Shown here: positions 25,888 to 52,294 of the stretch, piece by piece
How the letters are laid out: each line of letters starts with the position of its first letter
Numbering within the stretch: position 1 is the first letter of the stretch
Origin: Candidatus Limnocylindria bacterium
GTDB taxonomy: Bacteria > Chloroflexota > Limnocylindria > QHBO01
NCBI GenBank assembly: GCA_036555375.1
Contig: DATBLJ010000018.1
Span: forward strand, 2,617 to 66,616
Reading direction: 5' to 3'
DNA length: 64,000 nt
Notes under the pieces: model-generated
The model's input: only the letters and a program-made list of their open reading frames with translations
What the model was told of the DNA's origin: nothing
Database searches by the model: none
Position numbers and translations under genes: made by a program

Positions 25888-26718
25888 GTGTCCCCTTCGC
25901 GTCCGCTCCAGTCCGAGGGCGGTTTCCCGTGGGCGGCGGCGGCGCGCCGGGACCGCCGGGTCGGTCGCACGATCGAATTCCACCCCGAGATCGGCTCCAC
26001 CAACGATCGTGCCCGCGAGGCGCTCGCCGAGCCGGAGGGGGACGGTCTGGCGGTGGTCGCCGACCGCCAGCTGGCGGGACGCGGCCGAATGGGCCGGACC
26101 TGGCTGTCGCCGACCGGCGTGAACCTGCTGGTCAGCATCGGCCTCCGCCTGCACCTCCCAGCCGACCATGCCTGGTGGCTCTCGGCCGCCGCGATCCTCG
26201 CGCTCCGGTCCGCCGCCAGCGAGGCGGTCGGCGACGCCGAGCCGCTGAGCGTCCGATGGCCGAACGACCTCGTCACCCTCGACGGCCTGAAGGTTGCCGG
26301 CCTGCTGGTCGAGACCCAGGTCACCGGTGACGTGGTGAGCGGGGCGGTCGTCGGGATGGGCCTGAACGTGAACTGGCGCCGGGACGAGATGCCGTCCGAC
26401 ATCGCCTCGACCGCGACGTCGCTGGCCGACCTGGCCGGCGCCCCGATCGACCGCGTCGCGCTGCTCGGCGCATTGCTCGAGGCGCTCGACGCCGAGGTGC
26501 GGCTGGTCGAGGCCGGTGCCTCACCACTCAGCCGATTCCAGTCCGCGTCCTGGCTCACCGGCCGGGCGATCGAGGTCGAGACCCCGGCGGGCCGGTTGAC
26601 CGGCGTCGCCGGGCCGATCGCCGATGACGGCGGCCTGGTCCTCGCCGGCCCCGTCGTGCAGACCACGGTGAGCGTGGGCGAGGTGATCCGGGTCCACGCC
26701 GGGGCGGGTGCCGGATGA
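25888..26718 (+). CDS. birA: biotin--[acetyl-CoA-carboxylase] ligase
   Basis: 276 aa; BPL catalytic motif QLAGRGRMGRTWLSP; C-terminal SH3-like domain. No N-terminal HTH, so a group I ligase. Confidence 0.85.
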   Translation: MSPSRPLQSEGGFPWAAAARRDRRVGRTIEFHPEIGSTNDRAREALAEPEGDGLAVVADRQLAGRGRMGRTWLSPTGVNLLVSIGLRLHLPADHAWWLSAAAILALRSAASEAVGDAEPLSVRWPNDLVTLDGLKVAGLLVETQVTGDVVSGAVVGMGLNVNWRRDEMPSDIASTATSLADLAGAPIDRVALLGALLEALDAEVRLVEAGASPLSRFQSASWLTGRAIEVETPAGRLTGVAGPIADDGGLVLAGPVVQTTVSVGEVIRVHAGAGAG

Positions 26719-27317
26719 GCGAGCCGCGTCCCCGCCCGGCCGAATCCCGGCCGCGCTCCAGTCCGGCATCCGGGACCGATCCGGACCTCGCCGACGTCCG
26801 AGCCGCGCAACGCGACCGTCGGGCGTTTGATCGCCTGTACCGACGCTATCTCGACCGGGTGTACAGCTACGCCTTCTACCAGCTCGGTGACCACCACGAG
26901 GCGGAGGACGTGACCGAGCGCACCTTCCTCGCCGCGCTGGCCGGCCTGGATGGCTTCTCCGACGAAGGCGCCACCTTCCGCGCTTGGCTCTTCCGGATCG
27001 CGCACAACGCCATCGCGAACGCGCACCGGTCCCGCCAGCGACGCCGATCGGCACCGATCTCCGAGATCGAGCACCACCCGGCGCCGGGGGCCGATCCGGC
27101 GGGAGTAGTGGCGCGCGCTGACGAGGGCCGCGCGATCCGCGCCGCCCTGGCCCGGATCCCGGCCGATCGACGTCAGGCGATCGTCCTGCGCTTCGTCGAC
27201 GGCCTTTCGGCACGCGAAATCGGCGCCGTCCTCGATCGGAGTGAGGGCGCGGCCCGCGTCCTCCTCCACCGCGCGCTCCGCGATCTTGCCGAGGAGCTGG
27301 ACGAGGACCGGCTGTAA
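26715..27317 (+). CDS. ECF-type RNA polymerase sigma factor
   Basis: ATG overlaps the birA stop. Sigma-70 region 2 (…FLAALAGLDGFSDEGATFRAWLFRIAHNAIA…) and region 4 (…IVLRFVDGLSAREIGAVL…). Confidence 0.85.
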   Translation: MSEPRPRPAESRPRSSPASGTDPDLADVRAAQRDRRAFDRLYRRYLDRVYSYAFYQLGDHHEAEDVTERTFLAALAGLDGFSDEGATFRAWLFRIAHNAIANAHRSRQRRRSAPISEIEHHPAPGADPAGVVARADEGRAIRAALARIPADRRQAIVLRFVDGLSAREIGAVLDRSEGAARVLLHRALRDLAEELDEDRL

Positions 27318-27349: not shown

Positions 27350-27691
27350 ATGACCCTCCATCCTGCCCCCCGCCCGACTGACGCCGAGCGCATCGACCGC
27401 GCCGTGAGCGCCCTCCTCGATGACGAGCCGGCGATCGTGCCGCCGACGCTCGCCGCCGAGCTCCGCACCGCTCGCTCGCTGCGCGACGGGCTCCACCTCG
27501 TGCCGCCGGGGACGGCCTTCGAGGCGGCGCTCGCTCGGCGCCTCGGCGCCGACGGGCTCCCGCTCGACGCCCGCCTCGGTGGATTCGTGCGACACCACAG
27601 CCGCCTGGTGGTCACCGGGGCGGTGGGATCGGTCGTGGTCAGCACGGCGGGGGTGGCCGTCGTCGCCTGGCGCCTGGTGCATCGGTCATGA
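27350..27691 (+). CDS. putative anti-sigma factor (single C-terminal TM helix)
   Basis: 113 aa directly after the ECF sigma gene. C-terminal hydrophobic helix (LVVTGAVGSVVVSTAGVAVVAW). Stop overlaps the accD start. Confidence 0.55.
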   Translation: MTLHPAPRPTDAERIDRAVSALLDDEPAIVPPTLAAELRTARSLRDGLHLVPPGTAFEAALARRLGADGLPLDARLGGFVRHHSRLVVTGAVGSVVVSTAGVAVVAWRLVHRS

Positions 27692-28625
27692 AGATCAAGT
27701 TTCCGTTCACCCGCCGATCGGCGCCGGCCGACACCTGGACGAAGTGTCCGCGCTGTGAGAACCAGCTCTTCAACCGGCAGCTCGAACGCAACGACCGGGT
27801 CTGCCCGACCTGCGAGTACCACTTCCGGCTGTCCGCACCGGAGCGGATCGCGCTCCTGCTCGACTCCGGCTCGTTCGTCGAGCGTGACGCGGGCCTGGTC
27901 AGCGGCGATCCGCTGACCTTCACCGACAGCAAGCCCTACCCCGAGCGGATCGAGTCCTCCCGCGCGAAGTCGGGCCTGGCCGACGCGGCGCTCTGGGGCA
28001 CCGGGCGGATCGAGAGCCAGCCCGTCGTGCTCGGCCTCTTCGATTTCCGGTTCATGGGCGGCTCGATGGGCAGTGTCGTCGGCGAGAAGGTGGCCCGGAC
28101 CTTCGAGGCGGCCCTGGCCGAGCGAGTCCCGGCCATCGTCGTGAGCGCGTCAGGCGGGGCGCGGATGCAGGAGGGCACGATCTCACTCCTCCAGCTGGCG
28201 AAGACGACCGCCGCGCTGGGCCGCCTGAACGAGGCGGGGATCCCGTTCATCAGCATCCTCACCGACCCGACGACCGGCGGCGTGTTGGCCAGCTTCGCGT
28301 CCCTCGGCGACGTGATCCTGGCCGAGCCCGGCGCGCTGATCGGCTTCGCCGGCGCCCGGGTCGCCAGCGGGACGGTGGGAGAGGAGCTTCCCGATGGGTT
28401 CCAGAGCGCGGAGCGGCTCTACGAGCACGGATTCATCGACGCGGTCGTGCCTCGCAGCCAGCTCCGGGCCATGGTCGCCCGCCTGGTTCGGCTCCTGCCG
28501 GTCGGCGGGCCCGCCGAGGGCGACGGCCGGCGCCTGCGCCCGATCGGCGCGCTGCAGGGCCTGGCCCAGCGCTTCGGCGGGGCTGTCAGCGAAACGGCCG
28601 GCATCGACACCGAGGCGCCGGCGCA

Positions 28626-28629
<4 letters not shown>
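27688..28629 (+). CDS. accD: acetyl-CoA carboxylase carboxyltransferase subunit beta
   Basis: N-terminal Cys4 zinc ribbon (CPRCENQ…CPTCEYH); CT-beta domain. Confidence 0.9.
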
Positions 28630-29632
<1,003 letters not shown>

Positions 29633-29636
<4 letters not shown>

Positions 29637-30103
29637 GCACCGACGAGACCGCCGAGGCCATGGCCAAGGCGGTCACCGCCCTGGTCCCGGCACTCACCGA
29701 GCGGCTGAGCCGCCACGGGCTGGCCGAGATCGAGGTCCGCCAGGGCGACCTCCGGGTCCGGGTCGTGGCACCCGGCCCGACCGGCGGCAGCGCTGCTGCC
29801 GGCGGTTCGGTCGAGGTCACCGTCACCACGTCCGACGTCGGCGTGACCCCGGTCGAGGGAACGACCGCGACCCTCGACCCGGTCCGATCACCGGCGGTCG
29901 GGCACTTCGTCTATGCCGACGGGCTCGGGCCGGGGCTGTCGGTCAGCGCCGGCACGGAGATCGGTTTCGTCGAGATGCTCGGCATCCGGCACGAGGTGCG
30001 GGCGGCCGCCGACGGCGTCGTGCGCCACCTCGTCGCGGAGAGCGGGGAGCCGGTCGAGTACGGCCAGCTCCTGGTCGAGATCGACCGGACACCAGCCGGC
30101 TGA
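29633..30103 (+). CDS. BCCP-like protein lacking the biotinyl-lysine (degenerate biotin carboxyl carrier paralog)
   Basis: Homologous to AccB over N- and C-terminal domains (…[18 protein letters not shown]…[41 protein letters not shown]). The canonical EAMKMMNEI is replaced by [10 protein letters not shown], so there is no lysine to biotinylate. Confidence 0.7.
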
Positions 30104-31467
30104 TGTTCGCCAAGATCCTGATCGCGAACCGGGGCGAGATCGCGGTGCGCATCCTGCGCACCTGCCAGGAGCTCGGGATCCCGGCGGTCGTCGCGTTCAG
30201 CGAGCCCGATCGCGACTCGCTGGCCGTCCGGTTGTCGGACGAGGCCATCTGCATCGGTCCGGCGGAAGCCCGCCGCTCGTACCTGAACCAGCCCGCGCTG
30301 ATCAGTGCCGCGCTGATCACCGGCTGCGACGCGGTCCATCCGGGCTATGGCTTCCTCTCCGAGGACGCCTCGTTCGCCGAGGCCTGCGCTGTCCACGACC
30401 TCGTGTTCATCGGCCCCCGGGCCCAGGTCATCGAGCGCTTCGCCTCGAAGTACGCGGTGCGCCGGATGCTGGCCGCCACCGGGCTGCCGACCGTGCCGGG
30501 CAGCACCGGGATCGTCGCCGACCTGGCGGACGCCCTGGCCCAGGCCGAGGCGGCCGGTTACCCGGTCCTGCTCAAGCCATCGGCCGGGGGTGGGGGACGC
30601 GGAATGCGGCTGGTGCGCTCGCCGCGCGAGATGGAGACCCAGCTGCCGCTCGCCCGGTCGGAGGCGCGCGCCGCCTTCGGGGACGACTCCCTCTACTTCG
30701 AGCGCTGGATCGAGGACAACCGTCACGTCGAGGTCCAGGTCCTCGTCGACAGCTACGGCAACGGGATCCATCTCGGGGAGCGCGACTGCTCCGTCCAGCG
30801 GCGGCACCAGAAGATCGTCGAGGAGGCGCCGTCGCCGGCGATGGACGAGCCGGCCCGCGAACGGCTCCGCGACCTCGCCATCCGCTCGGTGGTCGCCGCC
30901 GGCTACGAGAACGCCGGCACCCTCGAGTTCCTCCTCGACCGCGAGGGAAACTTCTATTTCATCGAGATCAACTGCCGCATCCAGGTCGAGCATCCGATCA
31001 CGGAGGCGCTGACGGGGATCGACCTCGTCGCCGAACAGCTCCGGATCGCGTCCGGCGAGCGGCTTACCCTGACCCAGGAGCAGGTCCAGCTGCGCGGGCA
31101 TGCGTTCGAGTTCCGGATCACGGCCGAGGATGCGCATGACAACTTCTCGCCGCAGACCGGGGTCGTATCCGAGCTCAGCTGGCCCGAGGGACCCGGCATC
31201 CGGGTCGACACCCACCTGTTCGCCGGCTACGAGATCCCGCCGTACTACGACTCGCTGCTCGCGAAGCTCATCGTCTGGGGCGAGGATCGCGGCGAGGCGC
31301 TGGCCCGCGCCCGGGCTGCCCTGGCCGACTGCCGGATCGAGGGGGTCAAGACGAACCTCCCCTTCCACCGGGCGATCGTCGACAATGCTGCCTTCGTGGA
31401 CGCCGAGGTCAGCACCAACCTGCTGGATCGCGTCGGGCCCGCCGCCTTCGTCGGCGAGCCAGCCTGA
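30103..31467 (+). CDS. accC: acetyl-CoA carboxylase biotin carboxylase subunit
   Basis: ATG 30103 overlaps the upstream stop (TGATG). [17 protein letters not shown]; ATP-grasp; …EMNTRIQVEHPITE…-like INCRIQVEHPITE. Confidence 0.95.
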   Translation: MFAKILIANRGEIAVRILRTCQELGIPAVVAFSEPDRDSLAVRLSDEAICIGPAEARRSYLNQPALISAALITGCDAVHPGYGFLSEDASFAEACAVHDLVFIGPRAQVIERFASKYAVRRMLAATGLPTVPGSTGIVADLADALAQAEAAGYPVLLKPSAGGGGRGMRLVRSPREMETQLPLARSEARAAFGDDSLYFERWIEDNRHVEVQVLVDSYGNGIHLGERDCSVQRRHQKIVEEAPSPAMDEPARERLRDLAIRSVVAAGYENAGTLEFLLDREGNFYFIEINCRIQVEHPITEALTGIDLVAEQLRIASGERLTLTQEQVQLRGHAFEFRITAEDAHDNFSPQTGVVSELSWPEGPGIRVDTHLFAGYEIPPYYDSLLAKLIVWGEDRGEALARARAALADCRIEGVKTNLPFHRAIVDNAAFVDAEVSTNLLDRVGPAAFVGEPA

Positions 31468-31482
31468 TTCTCCGGGAGACCG

Positions 31483-32001
31483 ATGAGCACCGATTCGCCC
31501 GCCGTCCCCACCGCGCCGGACCCGAGCCTGCCGCCGCTCCCGTGGGAAGCGGCCACGATCATGGAGATCCTCCCGCACCGCTACCCGTTCCTCCTCATCG
31601 ACCGGGTCGTCGAGATCGATCCGGGCCAGCGGGTCGTCGCCATGCGCAACGTGACCGCCAACGAGCCCCAGTTCCAGGGCCACTTCCCCGGCCGCCCGAT
31701 CATGCCCGGCGTCCTGCTCGTCGAATCGCTGGCCCAGGCCGGCTGCGTGGCGGTCCTCTCGACGCCCGAGAACCGCGGCAAGCTCGTCCTGTTCGGGGGC
31801 ATCGACGAGTGCAAGTTCCGCCGGATCGTCGTGCCCGGCGACACGCTGCGGCTCGAGATCACCGTCGAGAAACTGGGCCGCGTCTCGGGTCGCGCCCGGG
31901 CGGTGGCCTCGGTCGAGGGCGAGGTCGCCTGCGAGGCGTACCTGACGTTCATCATGCCCCGCGACCAGGACCTTGGCGGCAGCCGGGCCCCCGGTGGCTG
32001 A
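31483..32001 (+). CDS. fabZ: 3-hydroxyacyl-ACP dehydratase FabZ
   Basis: [14 protein letters not shown]…[21 protein letters not shown] (hotdog fold, catalytic His). Confidence 0.9.
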
Positions 32002-33292
32002 CCGGGCGCCGTCACGCTCCTCCGCCGAGCGCGGGGAGCGGCGGGTCGTCATCACCGGCCTCGGGGCCGTGACGCCGCTCGGCAACGACGTCGAGACCTA
32101 CTGGGACGGTCTCGTCACCGGGCGGAGCGGGATCGACCGTTTCGCGAGCTTCGACCCGAGCGTGGTCGCGTCCCAGGTCGGGGGTGAGATCAAGGATTTC
32201 GATGCGACCGTCTACATGGATCGCAAGGACGTGCGCCGCCACGACCGGGTCGTCCACTACGCGTGGGCGGCCAGCGCCCAGGCGTTGACCGACGCCGGGC
32301 TGCCGATCCCGTTCGTCGAGGGCGATCCCGAGGCGGATCGGATCGGCGCCATCGTGGCCACCGGGATCGGGGGGATCACCTCGACGATCCGCGACGCCCA
32401 AGCGGCCCAGGTCGAGGGCTATGACCGGGTCGGCCCGTTCAGCATCCTGAACATGATTCCCGACACCGCCGCTGGCCACGTCGCCATCGCGGCCAACCTG
32501 CGTGGGCCGAACTACGCGACGGTGAGCGCCTGCGCGTCCTCGAACCACGCCCTTGGCGAGGCGGCCGGGATCATCCGGCGCGGCGACGCGGACGTGATGC
32601 TCGCCGGCGGGACCGAGGCCGCGATCTGCGAGTTCGTGGTCGCGGCCTTCAGCGCGATGCGGGCCCTCACGACGAAGCGCAACGCCGACCCGACCCACGC
32701 CTCGCGGCCGTTCGACGCCGACCGCGACGGCTTCGCCATCGCCGACGGCGCTGGCGTGGTCGTCCTGGAGGAGCTCGAGCATGCCCGGGCCCGCGGCGCG
32801 CGGATCCGGGCCGAGCTGATCGGCTACGGCGCCTCGGACGACGCGGCCCACGTGACGCTGCCCGCTCCAGGCGGGCGCGGGGCGGTGGCCAGCATGCGGA
32901 TCGCCCTCGCCGATGCCGGCCTGGTGCCCGGCGACCTGTCGTACATCAACGCCCATGGGACCTCGACCCCGCCGAACGACTCGGCTGAGACCGCCGCCAT
33001 CAAGACCGTGTTCGGTGACGATGCCTACCGGATCCCGGTGAGCAGCACGAAGTCGATGACCGGCCACTTGATGGGGGCTGGCGGCGGCATCGAGGCCGTG
33101 GCCTGCGTCCGGGCGCTCGAGACCGGGATGATTCCGCCGACCACGAACCACGAGACGCCGGATCCGGAATGTGATCTCGACTACGTGCCGAATGTCGCCC
33201 GCCGGGCGCCGATCACGACCGCCATGAGCAACGCGTTCGGTTTCGGCGGCCACAACGCGACCCTCGTCTTTCGGCGCTGGGACGGCGCCTGA
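31994..33292 (+). CDS. fabF: beta-ketoacyl-ACP synthase II
   Basis: GTG 31994 overlaps the fabZ end. KAS signatures ([14 protein letters not shown], active-site [24 protein letters not shown]). Confidence 0.9.
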
Positions 33293-33296
33293 CGGC

Positions 33297-33734
33297 ATGG
33301 CCGATGACCCGATCCTGGCCGCGGTCGATGCGCTGACCGGACCCTTCCTCGAGAGCGGCCTCGACGAGCTCGAGGTCGAGACCGGCGGGATCACGGTGCG
33401 CCTCGCCCGTCATCGGGCAGCGCCGGCCACGACACCAGCCGCCGCGTCCGGCGCACCGGCCGCGGGCACGCCGTTCGGCGAGCCGGCGCCGGGCCATCGG
33501 TTCATCACCGCTCCGCTGACCGGGATCTGGTACACGGCCCCCTCGCCCGGAGCCAGGGCGTACCTCCAGCTCAACGGCGAGGTGGCCGCCGGCCAGGTGG
33601 TCGGCCTGATCGAGGCCATGAAGCTCTTCAACGAGATCAAGTCGGATGTCGCCGGCACAGTCAGCCGCGTCCTGGCCGACAATGGGGCCCTCGTGAAGCG
33701 CCAGCAGCCCCTGTACGAGATCCGCCTCGCATGA
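33297..33734 (+). CDS. accB: biotin carboxyl carrier protein (bona fide, with biotinyl-Lys)
   Basis: C-terminal biotinyl domain with IEAMKLFNEIKSD; Ala/Pro-rich linker. Confidence 0.9.
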   Translation: MADDPILAAVDALTGPFLESGLDELEVETGGITVRLARHRAAPATTPAAASGAPAAGTPFGEPAPGHRFITAPLTGIWYTAPSPGARAYLQLNGEVAAGQVVGLIEAMKLFNEIKSDVAGTVSRVLADNGALVKRQQPLYEIRLA

Positions 33735-34801
33735 GCCGCGCCGTGATCACCGGATGGGGGATGTACGCCCCATCGCGGGTCATGACCAACGAGGACCTGT
33801 CGAAGATCGTCGACACGTCCGACGAGTGGATCCGGACCCGGACCGGGATCCGCGAACGGCGCATTGCCGCGGACGACGAGACGACGACCACCCTCGCGAC
33901 CAATGCCGGTCGCGACGCCCTCGCGGTCGCGGGTGTCGACCCGGCGGACGTCGACCTCGTCATCGTCGCCACGGCAAGCCCGGACTACCTGATGCCGGCA
34001 ACCGGCGTCCTCGTCGCCCGCGACCTGGGAGCGACCCGGGCGGCGGGCTTCGACCTGAATGCCGCCTGCTCGGGCTTCGTCTTCGGCCTCGCCGCAGGGG
34101 CGAGCTTCGTGACGAGCGGCATGGCGCGCCAGGTGCTCGTCATCGGCGTCGACCTGCTGAGCCGGTACCTCGACTGGACCGACCGGAACACGTGCGTCCT
34201 GTTCGGTGATGGAGCGGGCGCGGTGCTCCTCTCCGCCTCGGACGGACCGGGTGGACTCCTCTCGGTCGAGCTCTACTCGGACGGCACCGGGGAGGAGGGG
34301 ATCATCATCCCCGGCGGCGGGACGGCCCACCCGGCCACCGAGGAGAGCGTCCGCGACCGCCTCCACTTCATGCAGATGGCCGGCAAGGAGGTCTATCGGT
34401 ACGCGACCCGCCAGCTGGCGGACACGACCCAGGCCGCGGTCACCAGGGCGGGCCTGCGGATGGACGACATCGACCTGTTCCTCTACCACCAGGCCAACAT
34501 CCGGATCCTGGAGACCGTCCGCGACCTGCTCCGGATCGACGGCGACAAGGTCCACGTCAACATCGACCGGTACGGGAACACCTCGGCAGCCTCCGTGCCG
34601 ATGGCCCTCGCCGAGGCGGTGGCCGCCGGCCGCGTGAACATCGGCGACCGGATCCTGATGGGCGCCTTCGGCGCCGGCTACACGGCGGGCGCCGCCGTCC
34701 TCGAGTGGACCGCCGATCCGAGCCGCGCGTTCCTCGCGCCGGGCGAGCAGACACGTGCCGGCCAGCCACAGCGCGAGCCGGTCGGCGCGGGCGTCGAGTG
34801 A
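33731..34801 (+). CDS. fabH: 3-oxoacyl-ACP synthase III
   Basis: ATG overlaps the accB stop. FabH motifs (ITGWGMYAPSRVMTNEDL, active-site Cys NAACSGFVF, …HQANIRIL…, …FGAGYTAGAA…). Confidence 0.9.
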   Translation: MSRAVITGWGMYAPSRVMTNEDLSKIVDTSDEWIRTRTGIRERRIAADDETTTTLATNAGRDALAVAGVDPADVDLVIVATASPDYLMPATGVLVARDLGATRAAGFDLNAACSGFVFGLAAGASFVTSGMARQVLVIGVDLLSRYLDWTDRNTCVLFGDGAGAVLLSASDGPGGLLSVELYSDGTGEEGIIIPGGGTAHPATEESVRDRLHFMQMAGKEVYRYATRQLADTTQAAVTRAGLRMDDIDLFLYHQANIRILETVRDLLRIDGDKVHVNIDRYGNTSAASVPMALAEAVAAGRVNIGDRILMGAFGAGYTAGAAVLEWTADPSRAFLAPGEQTRAGQPQREPVGAGVE

Positions 34802-35556
34802 TGTTCGACCTGACCGGACGGGTTGCCCTCGTCACCGGGGCCAGCCGCGGCATCGGCCGTGCGCTGGCGCTGGCCTTCGCCGGGCAGGGCGCCGACGTGG
34901 CGGTCAACTACCGCGAGAGCGCGGACGGGGCGAACGCCGTCGTCGGCGAGATCGAGGCCCTCGGCCGCCGGGCGGTGGCCGTCCAGGGCAGCACCGCCGA
35001 CGGCAAGGACGCCTGCGAGGCGATCGTGACCGCCACCCTCGCGGCGTTCGAGAAGGTCGACATCCTCGTCAACAACGCGGGGATCACCCGTGACGACCTC
35101 ATCATGCGGATGGACCCCGACGACTGGGACGCGGTGATCGCGACGAATCTGTCCGGCCCGTTCTGGATGACCAAGGCCGTGTCCCGGCCGATGATGAAGA
35201 ACCGCCACGGCCGGATCATCAACATGTCGAGCGTCGCCGGACGGATGGGCAACGTCGGCCAGGCGAACTACGTCGCCGCCAAGGCCGGGCTCATCGGCCT
35301 GACCAAGACGACGGCCCGCGAGCTGGCCAGCCGGAACATCACCTGCAACGCCATCGCGCCGGGCCTGGTCGAGACCGACATCCTCACCGGCCTGTCGGAC
35401 GCGGCCCGCGACTACATCATCGGGATCACCCCGCTCGGTGGACTGGCCACGGTCGAGGACGTGGCCGCAGCGGCCGTCTACTTCGCCAGTGACGAGGCCC
35501 GGTTCGTGACCGGGCAGGTGCTCGGCGTCGACGGCGGCATCGTGATGGGGAGCTGA
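34801..35556 (+). CDS. fabG: 3-oxoacyl-ACP reductase
   Basis: ATG overlaps the fabH stop (TGATG). SDR motifs TGASRGIG, NNAG, YxxxK (YVAAKAG). Confidence 0.9.
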   Translation: MFDLTGRVALVTGASRGIGRALALAFAGQGADVAVNYRESADGANAVVGEIEALGRRAVAVQGSTADGKDACEAIVTATLAAFEKVDILVNNAGITRDDLIMRMDPDDWDAVIATNLSGPFWMTKAVSRPMMKNRHGRIINMSSVAGRMGNVGQANYVAAKAGLIGLTKTTARELASRNITCNAIAPGLVETDILTGLSDAARDYIIGITPLGGLATVEDVAAAAVYFASDEARFVTGQVLGVDGGIVMGS

Positions 35557-35648
35557 CCGCAAGGGCCTCCACGTCGCCTGTCTCGGATCTGCAACATCGG
35601 TCGCGAAGCCGCAATGCCGGCGTGCCCACGGTGGGGCACAATCGGCCC

Positions 35649-36068
35649 ATGCTGACACTTCGCCGACTCCTCCAGCCCACCCGCCACGTGGCCGCCCACT
35701 GCGACCTGCCCTGCGGCATCTACGACCCGGAGCAGGCCCGGATCGAGGCTGAATCGTGCCTGCGGATCATCGAGAAGCACGACGCCAGCGAGGACCCGCT
35801 GTTCAAGGGTCGCTGCATCCATATCAAGGAAGAGCGCGCCGAGCTGGTGAAGCACCACCTCGACGTCCTGTGGCACGACTACTTCAAGCCCGAGCACCTC
35901 GAAGCCCACCCCGACCTGCACGACGTGTTCTGGCAGGCCACCAAGCAGGCCTCCAAGGTCAAGCAGACGCTCGACGTCCAGGCGGCCAAGGACCTGCTCG
36001 CCGCCATCGACCGGATCGACGAGATCTGGAAGGCGACCGGCGGTCCCGAGAAGACGCGCGTCCAGTAA
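35649..36068 (+). CDS. sodN: nickel-containing superoxide dismutase precursor
   Basis: Ni-hook HCDLPCGIYDP follows a 16-aa propeptide (MLTLRRLLQPTRHVAA). An alternative GTG start at 35622 would give a 25-aa propeptide. Confidence 0.9.
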   Translation: MLTLRRLLQPTRHVAAHCDLPCGIYDPEQARIEAESCLRIIEKHDASEDPLFKGRCIHIKEERAELVKHHLDVLWHDYFKPEHLEAHPDLHDVFWQATKQASKVKQTLDVQAAKDLLAAIDRIDEIWKATGGPEKTRVQ

Positions 36069-36093
36069 TCGGGCTCGCCTGACGGCCTGACCG

Positions 36094-36492
36094 ATGCGGA
36101 CCGGCGCCGGGTTCGGCCTGGGCTTCGTGCTCGGCCTTGCCGTCGCCTGGGCGCTCGGTCGGCTGCTCCGTGACCTCGACGCGGTCGTCGTCGACGGCCG
36201 CTCGATGGCGCCGGCCCTCGAGCCCGGCGACCGGCTGCTCGTGGAGTCGTGGACGTACCGGCGTCGCGCCCCACGCCCTGGGGAGATCGTGCTGGCCGGC
36301 GATCCGCGGACGCCCCGCCGCGAGCTCGTGAAGCGGGTCGCCGCCCTCCAGGACGACCGGGTCGCGCTCCGCGGCGACGCGCGGCTGAGCACCGACTCGC
36401 GGATCTTCGGACCGCTGCCCGTCTCCGCCATCCGGTGGCGGGCGATCGTTCGCTACTGGCCGATCGAACGGGCCGCCTGGCTCAGCCGCTGA
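36094..36492 (+). CDS. sodX: S26 signal-peptidase-like NiSOD maturation protease
   Basis: 132 aa. TM anchor, then S26 catalytic Ser region (VVDGRSMAPALEPGDRLL) and …ELVKRV…GD… motif. Immediately downstream of sodN. Confidence 0.8.
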   Translation: MRTGAGFGLGFVLGLAVAWALGRLLRDLDAVVVDGRSMAPALEPGDRLLVESWTYRRRAPRPGEIVLAGDPRTPRRELVKRVAALQDDRVALRGDARLSTDSRIFGPLPVSAIRWRAIVRYWPIERAAWLSR

Positions 36493-49471: not shown

Positions 49472-52294
49472 ATGACCGAGGCCGAACGGAAGAGACTGGA
49501 CCACGTCGTCCTTCCGCGGCGGCTTCCCGGCCTGGCGCTGCTCGAGCGCTACTTCCCCTCTCCGGCCGATAACGTCCTCGACGCCGAGCTCGCCTCGTTC
49601 GCGAGCGCCGGTGACACGATCCTCGACCCCTGGTCGGGCACCGGCTGGACCGCGCGCCGGGCCGTGGCGCACGGGATGCGGGTGGTCGCCGCCGAGGCGA
49701 GCCCGTTCGCCCAGATGGCGGCCCAGGCCTTTCTCCTTGCACCCGAGGTCGCGGCGGTGGACGCCGCGTTCGCCCAGCTCGGCTCCTCGCGACGGGTCGA
49801 CATTCCGCTTCGGCAGCACGTCGAGGAGCTCTATGCGTCGCGCTGCCCGAACTGCAACCGGCCAGTCGTCGTCGAGGAGTTCATCTGGCCCCGGGACGGG
49901 GACGCGCCGGGCCGCAAGGTCTACCGCTGCACCGCGTGCGACATCTCGGTCGGCGGCCCCGACGAGCGGGTCGCCCCGGTCGACGAGGCCGACTACGCCA
50001 AGCTCGGCCTCGAGCCGCCGCCACCCGCCCCCGAGGCGCCCGCCATCGAGCCGGCGGCCGATGCCGACGAGGACCTGCCGCCGGCCCCGTTCGGCCTGAT
50101 TGGCGACCCCCTGCCCACCGAGGAGGCGCCGCTCGCCCCGCTGGGGGAGCCCGGCGGTCCACCGCCCCCGCCCGCGCGACCGGCCGACCCGCCGGTGGCC
50201 CTCGGCGCCGAGGAGGGCCCGCGCTTCGCGTCGACCGTCCGCCCGACCCCGATTCCGGCACCGGTCGGGACCGATGTCCGGCAGGGACTCGCCTACCAGC
50301 AGCTCCAGGAACGCTTCCCGGTCCTCGACGAGCGGCGCGACGTCGTCGACGAGGTCCTCGACCTGTACACCTCGCGGAACCTGTACGCCCTCCAGGCGAT
50401 CGCCAACAAGATCGACGCCGAGTTCCACGACCAGCCGATGGCCGCCGTCTTCCGCCTCGCGCTGGCGGGCTGCCTGCTCCCGGCCAGCCGGCTGAACGGC
50501 TACCCGGGGCGGGTCGCCTCGCTCCGGATCGCGGGCGGTCACGTCCGCCAGCCCGCGTCCCGCCACCACCGCGAGGTGAACGTCTGGCGCCTCTTCGAGG
50601 CCGCCTACCAGGACGTGCGCACCGCGCTGACGGCGCTCGGGCGGGATCGGCGGCCGGTCCGCTTTGCCGCCGACCTCGGCGAGCTCGGCGGCATGGGCGC
50701 GGCCAACCTGCTGTGGATCCGCTGCCGACCGGCGGTCGTCGGCCAGTACCTCCCGCCCGACGGGGTCGATCTCGTCATCGGCGCGCCGCCGCCGCCCGAG
50801 AGCGTCGACGAGCTCTCGTTCGAGTACCTCGCCACCGCGTGGCTGCTCGGCCGGGAGGCGGCCGAAACGCTCCGCCTCGAGCCCCTGTTCGGGGGCGCGT
50901 CCCGCGCCGACGGGGCCGAGGTGACCGCCTTCCGCCATGCGATGGCCTCGGCCGCCGGGGCCCTGAAGCCGGGCGGCTGGTTCACGGTCCTGCTCGAAGG
51001 CGACGACCCGGATCGTGTGCTGGCGGTGGCGATGGCCGCTGCCGGCGCCGAGCTCGAGCTCGTCGACGCCATTCCGCGCGAGTCGGCCCGCTCCGGGGAC
51101 GGGGTGACGCTCCACTTCCGCCGCGCGTCGGCCGAGGACCGGCTGCGGGACGCGGTGCGGGCCAAGCCGCTCCGCCTGGGCGCGACCGATGGCCACCTGA
51201 CGTATCCCGAGCTCGCGGGCGCCATCGAGCGGGCGACGGCGTCACTCCTGCGGGAGCGCGGCGAGCCGGCCGGGCTGACCCGGATCGCGTGCGCCGTCCT
51301 CCTCGAGCTCGAGCGGAGCGGCCTGCTGCGGCGGCTCGTCCAGGCCCGGCCGGCGGACGAGGACGCCGAAGTGGGGGAGGAGTCGGTCGTCACCGATCGG
51401 GTCGAGCGCGGCGGTCCGGCCCTGCTCGCCGTCCTGCTGCGCGAGGAGCTGTGGCGCGAGGACCATCCGAGCCTCATCCGGGTCGGCGACCCGCAGCGTC
51501 CCACTTGGTGGCTGCGCGAGCCGGAGCTGGCCGCCGACGGGACGATCGGTGACCGGGTCGAATGGGCGACCTTCTCGCTCCTCACGACCGCCGGCCAGCT
51601 CGACGAGACCGCGTTCCTCGATCGCGTGTTCGCGTTGTTCCCGGGCATCTCGTCCCCGGACGAGGAGCTCGTCCGGGCCTGCCTCGCCGCCTACGCCACG
51701 GTGGGGGACCGCGGCGAGCTCCGGTCCGAGGAGGACCTGGCGACCCGGATCGCGGACCACACTCGGGTCCTGGCCGCGATCGTCGAGTTCGGGCACCGGC
51801 TCGGGCTGCGGGCCTGGGTCAGCCGTCGCGAGCAGGAGCGACCGTGGCAGCAGGGGACCCTCGGCGACCTCCTGAAGGAGGACGAGCGGCGGACCTACCT
51901 CCCGCTCGTCATCCGCGCCCCGGCCGACGTGCTCGGCGCGGTCGACGGCCTGTGGTACGTGCGGAACCGGTCGAGCTACCTCTTCGAGGTCGAATGGACC
52001 GCGATGGTCGGAGAGGCGGTGCTCCGCCGAGGCAGCCAGATTCCGACTTCGGACCAGCAGGCCCGCTTCCTCGTCATCCCCGCCGAGCGCGCCGAGCTGC
52101 TCCGGCTCAAGCTGGCCCGCTCGCCGTGGCTCCGGACCGAGGTCGAGCGCCAGAACTGGCACGTCCTGAAGTGGCCACACCTGGAGGCCCTGATTGGCCG
52201 TGAAGGGGCCCGGATCGAGTGGCTGGAGCCGATGATCGGGCTCGATCCACTCGTGGAGCGCGGGGGCAAGCAGCTGACGATGTTCGGCGAGTGA
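49472..52294 (+). CDS. large multidomain protein: amino-methyltransferase-like fold with an inserted Cys4 zinc ribbon and Pro-rich linker, a degenerate catalytic motif, and an unassigned about 450-aa C-terminal region
   Basis: 940 aa, high GC3. SAM motif I ILDPWSGTGWTARRAV with the following acidic VVAAEASPF. CPNC-x18-CTAC zinc ribbon. Pro-rich spacer. DLVIGAPPPP in place of (D/N/S)PP(Y/F/W), then LKPGGWFTVLL. The C-terminal half has a VDGLW…YLFEVEW PD-(D/E)xK-like pattern with Trp in the Lys position. Confidence 0.7.
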   Translation: MTEAERKRLDHVVLPRRLPGLALLERYFPSPADNVLDAELASFASAGDTILDPWSGTGWTARRAVAHGMRVVAAEASPFAQMAAQAFLLAPEVAAVDAAFAQLGSSRRVDIPLRQHVEELYASRCPNCNRPVVVEEFIWPRDGDAPGRKVYRCTACDISVGGPDERVAPVDEADYAKLGLEPPPPAPEAPAIEPAADADEDLPPAPFGLIGDPLPTEEAPLAPLGEPGGPPPPPARPADPPVALGAEEGPRFASTVRPTPIPAPVGTDVRQGLAYQQLQERFPVLDERRDVVDEVLDLYTSRNLYALQAIANKIDAEFHDQPMAAVFRLALAGCLLPASRLNGYPGRVASLRIAGGHVRQPASRHHREVNVWRLFEAAYQDVRTALTALGRDRRPVRFAADLGELGGMGAANLLWIRCRPAVVGQYLPPDGVDLVIGAPPPPESVDELSFEYLATAWLLGREAAETLRLEPLFGGASRADGAEVTAFRHAMASAAGALKPGGWFTVLLEGDDPDRVLAVAMAAAGAELELVDAIPRESARSGDGVTLHFRRASAEDRLRDAVRAKPLRLGATDGHLTYPELAGAIERATASLLRERGEPAGLTRIACAVLLELERSGLLRRLVQARPADEDAEVGEESVVTDRVERGGPALLAVLLREELWREDHPSLIRVGDPQRPTWWLREPELAADGTIGDRVEWATFSLLTTAGQLDETAFLDRVFALFPGISSPDEELVRACLAAYATVGDRGELRSEEDLATRIADHTRVLAAIVEFGHRLGLRAWVSRREQERPWQQGTLGDLLKEDERRTYLPLVIRAPADVLGAVDGLWYVRNRSSYLFEVEWTAMVGEAVLRRGSQIPTSDQQARFLVIPAERAELLRLKLARSPWLRTEVERQNWHVLKWPHLEALIGREGARIEWLEPMIGLDPLVERGGKQLTMFGE

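Follow-up and report, generated by a model that had tools for sequence, protein, structure and literature searches.

Acetyl-CoA carboxylase (ACC) catalyses the committed step of fatty-acid synthesis (FAS), and a string of ACC and FAS genes lies on the + strand of a 64,000-nucleotide stretch of DNA from a Candidatus Limnocylindria bacterium (contig DATBLJ010000018.1), here called the window. Within this string, between accA and accC, a gene referred to below as X encodes a protein of 156 aa that is a paralogue of BCCP (biotin carboxyl carrier protein, the product of accB) but that has neither the biotinylatable lysine nor the thumb of AccB. The gene and its parts can be listed as follows.

29633..30103, + strand: gene X, Lys-less and thumb-less BCCP paralogue of 156 aa (list of open reading frames (ORFs), Pfam, BLASTP, profile and structure comparison)
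29619..29629, + strand: Shine-Dalgarno-like run GAGGAGGGGGG within the 3' end of accA (direct sequence reading)
29639..29764, + strand: N-terminal AccB-like segment, with a helix (residues 3-27) and a beta-hairpin (residues 30-44; about 34-44 in the AlphaFold2 model) (AlphaFold2, conservation, alignment)
29771..29863, + strand: linker, disordered and rich in Ala, Gly, Thr and Val, residues 47-77 (predicted local distance difference test score (pLDDT) <50, family alignment)
29873..30085, + strand: beta-sandwich resembling a biotinyl domain, residues 81-151 (pLDDT ~96; Foldseek; PF00364)
29918..29935, + strand: DGLGPG loop, site of a 6-residue deletion relative to the AccB thumb (hidden Markov model and hhalign alignments)
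29969..29986, + strand: hairpin tip V-E-M-L-G-I, in place of [IV]-E-A-M-K-[LM] (sequence reading, BLASTP, profile alignments)

The initial annotation of this DNA had placed X between accA and accC, with an ATG overlapping a TGA. This is the case at the junction with accC, where the stop of X and the start of accC overlap as TGATG (30101-30105), and the stop of accA and the start of X also overlap, as ATGA (29633-29636). The Shine-Dalgarno-like run is a strong one, its GGAGG core lying 7 nt 5' of the X start codon. The ORF is intact and displays a coding-type GC content at third codon positions (GC3) of 0.92, equal to that of the neighbouring genes.

X is homologous to BCCP over its full length, an N-terminal helix and beta-hairpin being followed by a flexible linker and then by a beta-sandwich of biotinyl type. 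It matches the Pfam family Biotin_lipoyl (PF00364) with 30.2 bits (E 4e-7), for a gathering score of 22.1, and shows 26% identity over 145 residues (BLASTP, E 8e-6) with the true AccB encoded further downstream in the window (33297-33734). A profile of X aligns with the full-length AccB of Escherichia coli (4HR7_B; E 1.5e-11), the alignment running from the N-terminal segment up to the C-terminus, and the profile-profile comparison (hhalign) of the X family with the AccB of Limnocylindria gives a probability of 98.8%, with an E-value of 7.8e-17 and a score of 103 over 137 columns. The N-terminus of X is aligned from residue 19 of the E. coli protein and from residue 17 of the Limnocylindria one. 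The claim that X aligns with AccB along its length is therefore borne out, and the homology lies well outside what chance would produce. Against the model TIGR00531, X reaches 35.7 bits for a cutoff of 115.2; as the cognate true AccB also remains below this cutoff (88.5 bits), the test is weak if taken alone.

In the structure predicted by AlphaFold2 fed with the family alignment, the sandwich of X superposes on the biotinyl domain of E. coli (1BDO) with a template modelling (TM) score of 0.83 and a root-mean-square deviation of 1.7 Å (Foldseek). The linker varies in length and sequence, as does that of AccB. Over 73 loci of the class Limnocylindria, the conservation of X peaks at the N-terminal hairpin, the SPAVG strand, the V..LG turn and the C-terminal GE.VEYGQ, and, class-wide, the N-terminal residues P19, L21, L30, E32, E34 and R43 all reach a conservation of at least 90%. 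X thus retains the SPxVG and GExVEYGQ motifs of AccB. The true AccB of Limnocylindria (33297-33734 and its orthologs) displays, where X has GE.VEYGQ, an unusual and invariant C-terminal G.LVK..Q. The GE.VEYGQ pattern is also found in Lys-bearing AccBs from other phyla, these outgroups having been retrieved by that same pattern. Furthermore, the X proteins of a distant clade (P0142, P0183, P0199 and P0261) carry long low-complexity linkers and C-terminal tails rich in Ala, Gly, Ser and Pro, reaching up to ~330 aa, and still have the N-terminal hairpin and the LG domain.

The lysine that AccB uses to carry biotin is missing from X. The initial annotation had read the tip of the hairpin as EMLGI, devoid of a biotinylatable lysine; the lysine is indeed gone, but the residue in its column is a glycine, not a leucine or an isoleucine. 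Alignment with AccB, which had been proposed as a check, confirms the loss: Gly117 (GGC, 29981-29983) stands opposite the biotinyl lysine and Leu116 opposite the methionine that precedes it. BLASTP sets the hairpin of X opposite G-L-I-E-A-M-K-L-F-N-E-I of the true AccB, and the profile alignment to the E. coli protein sets VEmLG opposite VEAMK. X also displays a 6-column gap opposite the thumb of both E. coli AccB and the cognate AccB. The use of another lysine as modification site was considered and rejected, as 193 of the 252 X members have no lysine anywhere in the domain; a lysine within 6 residues of the turn is found in only 3 of the 252. To judge from the residues at the turn, X cannot be biotinylated and cannot act as a carboxyl carrier. 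It reads as an AccB minus exactly two features tied to the cofactor, the lysine and the thumb, with the parts involved in protein contacts retained.

The Lys-less form is not peculiar to this genome. The 120 best homologues, 53-100% identical to X, all have a glycine at the lysine column, the tip reading VEMLG[IV] or a near variant. A profile built from 39 X members and searched against 1.84 billion cluster representatives (50%-identity clusters) retrieved 331 clusters at E <= 1e-10; among the best 150 of these, all the 143 representatives that cover the column have the glycine, with the pattern [VI][DE][VMCL]LG[VI]. Scanning GTDB with one genome per species revealed ~70 loci from Limnocylindria/Chloroflexota with the same gene order (L001-L076), and every syntenic X has the xLG hairpin, even those sharing as little as 30% identity with the query. 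As these genome loci were found through X itself, a separate scan of metagenomes was anchored on AccC. It retained as informative the loci encoding an AccC at least 64% identical and offering enough upstream DNA, and a Lys-less X lies upstream of accC in 31 of 31. The form is therefore kept in related genomes, a second check that had been proposed, and the presence of the lysine in relatives, which would have meant a local decay only, is contradicted by the glycine of all the syntenic orthologs.

As far as sampled, X is found only in Limnocylindria, a class of Chloroflexota (NCBI taxonomy) comprising soil and freshwater bacteria. The order accD-accA-X-accC is kept across the class, with accA before X in all the loci; fabD, which encodes malonyl-CoA:acyl carrier protein transacylase, lies between X and accC in a large sister clade (L006:8354-9448, with equivalents in L005-L039 and L082-L100). 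The 488-aa protein P0154, in which X runs into a fabD-like sequence, was examined as a natural fusion and rejected as a frameshift artefact of assembly or gene calling. Besides, a distant clade of Limnocylindria (L044:10431-11207, L048, L040) carries between fabZ and fabF a gene of ~260 aa with metallophosphoesterase-like motifs (DIHGN...GNTD...GHTH), read from the translation only. In databases, a protein identical to X, from a Candidatus Limnocylindria metagenome-assembled genome (MAG), is named 'biotin/lipoyl-containing protein', and most of its homologues are named 'acetyl-CoA carboxylase biotin carboxyl carrier protein'.

Selection also acts on X. Measured against four close relatives, X has a ratio of nonsynonymous to synonymous substitution rates (dN/dS) of 0.22-0.34; the corresponding values are 0.10-0.13 for accC and 0.05-0.23 for accB. 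Pair by pair, X diverges in step with AccC (Spearman rho 0.84), at 2.0 times the rate of AccC, for 1.65 times in the case of the true AccB. Given the invariance over the whole family, the dN/dS values and the co-divergence with AccC, X is an old gene, vertically inherited and selectively maintained. The suggestion that it could be a recently decayed duplicate under relaxed selection is contradicted by the same data, the Lys-less form being fixed across the class. More generally, the idea that X is a duplicate in decay, a pseudogene or an artefact of sequencing or assembly has nothing in its favour other than the missing lysine itself, and its probability is negligible: the xLG hairpin is invariant over hundreds of independent assemblies, dN/dS is well below 1 and the ORF is intact with a coding-type GC3. 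An error hiding an AMKM motif, also envisaged initially, fails for a further reason, since going from GGC to AAG or AAA needs 2-3 base changes, so that no single-base error could restore the lysine.

Globally, X belongs to a string of genes that, on the + strand, reads birA, extracytoplasmic function (ECF) sigma factor, 113-aa ORF, accD, accA, X, accC, fabZ, fabF, accB, fabH and fabG, and in which most of the junctions from birA to fabG are overlapping or at most 33 nt long. Its other members are listed below.

25888..26718, + strand: birA, class I biotin protein ligase without helix-turn-helix domain, first in the string (TIGR00121, 126.9 bits for a cutoff of 83.1)
26715..27317, + strand: ECF-type sigma factor, between birA and accD (TIGR02937, 99 bits for a cutoff of 42.9; position kept in related loci)
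27350..27691, + strand: 113-aa ORF whose stop overlaps the accD start (ORF list; coding-type GC3 of 0.89)
27688..28629, + strand: accD, carboxyltransferase beta subunit with a Zn ribbon (PF01039, PF17848)
28626..29636, + strand: accA, carboxyltransferase alpha subunit, whose TGA overlaps the X ATG (PF03255, 389.9 bits)
30103..31467, + strand: accC, biotin carboxylase, whose ATG overlaps the X TGA (PF00289, PF02786, PF02785)
31483..32001, + strand: fabZ (PF07977)
31973..33292, + strand: fabF (KAS II) (PF00109, PF02801)
33297..33734, + strand: true accB, 145 aa, with the IEAMKLFNEIKSD hairpin and the thumb (PF00364, 45 bits; best NCBIfam match TIGR00531, 88.5 bits)
33731..34801, + strand: fabH (PF08541, PF08545)
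34801..35556, + strand: fabG (PF13561, PF00106)

A genuine accB had been reported about 3 kb downstream of X; it is found 3.2 kb away, with an EAMKL tip. Its IEAMKLFNEIKSD motif does not vary over 18 aligned orthologs and keeps a conservation of at least 90% in ~60 loci, and a true accB with this motif lies between fabF and fabH in every complete locus. The initial annotation had also considered that X sits where accB normally precedes accC. This holds for the common accB-accC pair, but in the fab clusters of Firmicutes type accB follows fabF, which is the place of the true accB here; therefore, position alone does not tell which copy is ancestral.

The stop of birA overlaps the start of the ECF sigma factor gene, and birA is syntenic in ~60 loci. 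The position of both genes 5' of accD is kept across the class, which hints at a co-expression of biotinylation, ECF regulon and fatty-acid synthesis. The 113-aa ORF that follows them has no family match in the NCBIfam search and possibly encodes an anti-sigma factor. The true start of fabF is probably near 32030. No promoter or terminator was found in a scan of the 25.5-36.5 kb region, a scan that says little in a high-GC genome; fabD was not found in the 64-kb window, and no other biotin-related or PII gene was detected among 20 further ORFs of the window. Directly 3' of fabG, positions 35622-36492 carry a gene encoding a nickel superoxide dismutase (PF09055) followed by a gene encoding an S26-family peptidase, which looks like the usual pair of this enzyme and its maturation protease. 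Farther away, an ORF of 940 aa (49472-52294) displays a coding-type GC3 of 0.93 and has no Pfam match at E <= 1e-5.

A carrier protein unable to carry its cofactor recalls the plant proteins known as biotin attachment domain-containing proteins (BADCs). To our knowledge, plant BADCs are the only cofactor-less BCCP paralogues described so far. They are 25-30% identical to BCCP, lack the AMKL motif and bind both biotin carboxylase (BC) and BCCP (PMC11926652, PMC12706156). Initially named inhibitors, they were subsequently shown to promote assembly (PMC11926652, PMC12706156, PMC11889953), and are described both as inhibitors and as an assembly 'glue' or 'cap' (PMC11926652, PMC12706156). Like BADC1-3 of Arabidopsis, X is a BCCP paralogue devoid of the AMK(L/M) motif that occurs alongside a true BCCP in a heteromeric ACC, and its 26% identity with the cognate AccB lies inside the range of BADCs. 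On its sequence, X therefore answers to the published description of a BADC-type protein: about 25-30% identity, no biotinylation motif and coexistence with a true BCCP. The likeness is one of description, the shared ancestry seen being only the common BCCP ancestry, and we infer by analogy that X may function as a BADC counterpart. Unlike BADCs, X comes from bacteria, has its gene in an operon and, as far as sampled, occurs only in Limnocylindria. Because its distribution is confined to one class in which it co-diverges vertically, an origin independent of plant and algal BADCs is more likely. A 2025 paper states that BADC is 'unique to the plant htACCase' (PMC11926652), and the full-text literature searched did not yield any account of a bacterial Lys-less BCCP paralogue or of the ACC of Limnocylindria, the statements on prokaryotes in the founding BADC papers being outside the scope of that search.

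Other known systems share part of these features. Compared with AccB itself (TIGR00531; E. coli AccB 1BDO and 4HR7), X has the full-length architecture, the fold and the place beside accC, and differs by the glycine in place of the biotinyl lysine, the leucine in place of the preceding methionine and the 6-residue deletion of the thumb. It thus passes for an AccB by fold, N-terminal segment and association with ACC genes, but not by lysine, thumb or TIGR00531 score. In BC1 of Chloroflexus aurantiacus, the hairpin in front of the BCCP core builds an eight-stranded barrel of four hairpins that ties two BC dimers and raises BC activity (PMC11077971), giving this hairpin a role both in BC tetramerisation and in activity. 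BC1 also belongs to an ACC of Chloroflexota, and X has, at the corresponding place, a predicted hairpin that is highly conserved, the equivalence being one of position. However, BC1 has its hairpin fused to BC and carries biotin on Lys553 of its BCCP core (PMC11077971), whereas X is free-standing and has no such lysine. Bacterial acyl-CoA carboxylases also have small non-catalytic partners that bind the biotin-dependent enzyme and alter its assembly or activity, namely the actinobacterial AccE epsilon subunit (PMC11926652) and MSMEG_0435-0436 (PMC13012033). Unlike X, these proteins are not BCCP paralogues and are unrelated to it in sequence and fold; MSMEG_0435-0436 was considered as a counterpart of X and rejected, being a different kind of regulator with an unrelated sequence.

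On balance, X is probably a non-catalytic 'dummy carrier' subunit of the heteromeric ACC of Limnocylindria, a reading that its sequence and gene context favour without making it certain. X would dock on AccC and co-oligomerise with AccB through the retained N-terminal hairpin, its cofactor-less domain occupying BCCP sites in the BC-BCCP subcomplex. Its presence would organise the complex or make it more stable, and would set the number of live carriers per BC, as proposed for plant BADC. In favour of this reading, X is encoded together with accD, accA, accC and the true accB, with start/stop overlaps with accA and accC, and the residues of the N-terminal hairpin are among its best conserved. 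The net effect on flux could be either that of an activating assembly 'glue' or a damping by competition with holo-AccB. The constitutive coupling of X to the catalytic genes makes us lean towards a stoichiometric structural subunit. The initial suggestion of a regulatory or scaffolding subunit, or of a competitive partner of biotin carboxylase, is likewise consistent with the conservation, the purifying selection, the N-terminal segment, the operon position and the coupling.

Several points weigh against a dummy carrier. All the Limnocylindria sources are MAGs or metagenomes and X is known from genes alone, its binding to AccC and AccB being proposed solely from the sequence elements that it retains. 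Moreover, accA is the sole universal neighbour of X; as fabD splits X from accC in the large sister clade, the gene order fits a carboxyltransferase partner equally well. The invariant glycine could simply be the best residue for a tight hairpin turn, rather than the sign of a docking of the tip. Finally, the loss of the thumb makes the domain of X resemble non-ACC biotinyl domains, so that an AccB-type docking on BC is not guaranteed.

The alternative closest to the dummy carrier is the original BADC model, in which X would be a dedicated negative regulator that competes with holo-AccB on biotin carboxylase or carboxyltransferase and throttles malonyl-CoA synthesis. An AccB architecture without cofactor, an invariant hairpin tip devoid of side chain and the first description of BADCs as inhibitors (PMC11926652, PMC12706156) all agree with it, and it overlaps the dummy carrier in that both need binding to the BC-BCCP subcomplex. 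However, X shares a gene string with accB and a translational coupling with accA and accC. X would thus be produced each time that the enzyme is, which is odd for a regulator if no further signal modulates it, and we give this model roughly one chance in four.

Roles outside the enzyme complex are much less probable. X might act on gene expression or cofactor supply, either by operon autoregulation, with which the N-terminal part of E. coli AccB is credited, or as a decoy or partner that BirA cannot consume. The strong conservation of the N-terminal AccB-like segment and the presence of birA at the head of the same conserved string would suit such a role. Yet BirA is here a class I enzyme without DNA-binding domain, a permanent decoy would waste ligase, and the whole C-terminal domain of X, needless for a function of the N-terminus only, is strongly conserved too; with no finding directly in its favour, this role is improbable. 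A little more improbable still is a service of X in a non-ACC system, for example as a structural beta-sandwich module of another complex, its place in the operon being historical. Cofactor-less lipoyl- or biotinyl-like domains do occur in many unrelated proteins, and X has weak NCBIfam matches to HlyD and resistance-nodulation-division (RND) adaptor models and Foldseek matches to CphZ. But throughout the class X comes after accA in all loci, co-diverges with AccC and is homologous to AccB over its full length, N-terminal segment included.

Beyond Limnocylindria, a further BCCP-like gene without the lysine, called X' here, lies upstream of accC in three of the AccC-anchored loci, in which AccC is only 55% identical. 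The relatives of X' belong to Fervidibacteria (Armatimonadota) and include Fervidibacter sacchari. The loci of Fervidibacteria are the following.

L142:3102-3566: X', upstream of accC
L161:835-1281: X', upstream of accC
L151 and L157: X', upstream of accC

The X' protein has ~148 aa, an AccB-like N-terminus and, as in X, Leu-Gly in place of Met-Lys; its hairpin follows [VI]D[SAT]LG[VI]xNEVR[SA]P in 39 of 39 clusters. X' differs from X by its phylum and by its gene context, which reads DUF1844 - X' - 117-aa ORF - accC - nusB - folD. The C-terminus of X' resembles that of certain Lys-bearing AccBs (P0310 and P0312), and its C-terminal motif recurs in the closest Lys-bearing matches, which suggests that X' arose separately from X. 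The same change from Met-Lys to Leu-Gly may thus have occurred more than once. The hhalign scores are nearly equal for the three comparisons: 113 for X' with the X family (probability 99.1%) and 102 for X' with Limnocylindria AccB (98.8%), next to the 103 of X with AccB. In a neighbour-joining tree with 200 bootstraps, four groups are recovered at 100%, with deep nodes at 14-18% only. A further Lys-less variant, the BCCP-like protein P0313, has an asparagine at the biotinyl-lysine column (IQSLNVINEV).

The X family is a large, conserved and mis-annotated group of non-biotinylatable BCCP paralogues in the ACC/FAS operon of an entire bacterial class. As these proteins cannot carry biotin, the carrier-protein name given to them in databases is wrong for metabolic reconstruction. 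More tentatively, and with somewhat less confidence than for the role of X itself, dummy carriers might be a recurrent way to build or tune heteromeric ACCs. They would have appeared independently in plants (BADC), Limnocylindria and Fervidibacteria, each time by duplication of BCCP and replacement of Met-Lys by a turn devoid of side chain, and would be in bacteria an obligatory, stoichiometric third component of the BC subcomplex.

The assembly of heteromeric ACCs and the number of carriers per catalytic site are still debated, and the mode of action of BADC is contested. If dummy carriers are indeed recurrent, simple bacterial systems would be available for the disputed mechanism of BADC, inhibitor or assembly factor. 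The ACC of Limnocylindria would give a five-gene system that could be reconstituted in E. coli, and, since Fervidibacter sacchari is a cultured species, native proteomics and genetics are conceivable for X'. A bacterial counterpart, class-wide, operon-encoded and coupled in translation, would show that the BADC idea is not specific to plants.

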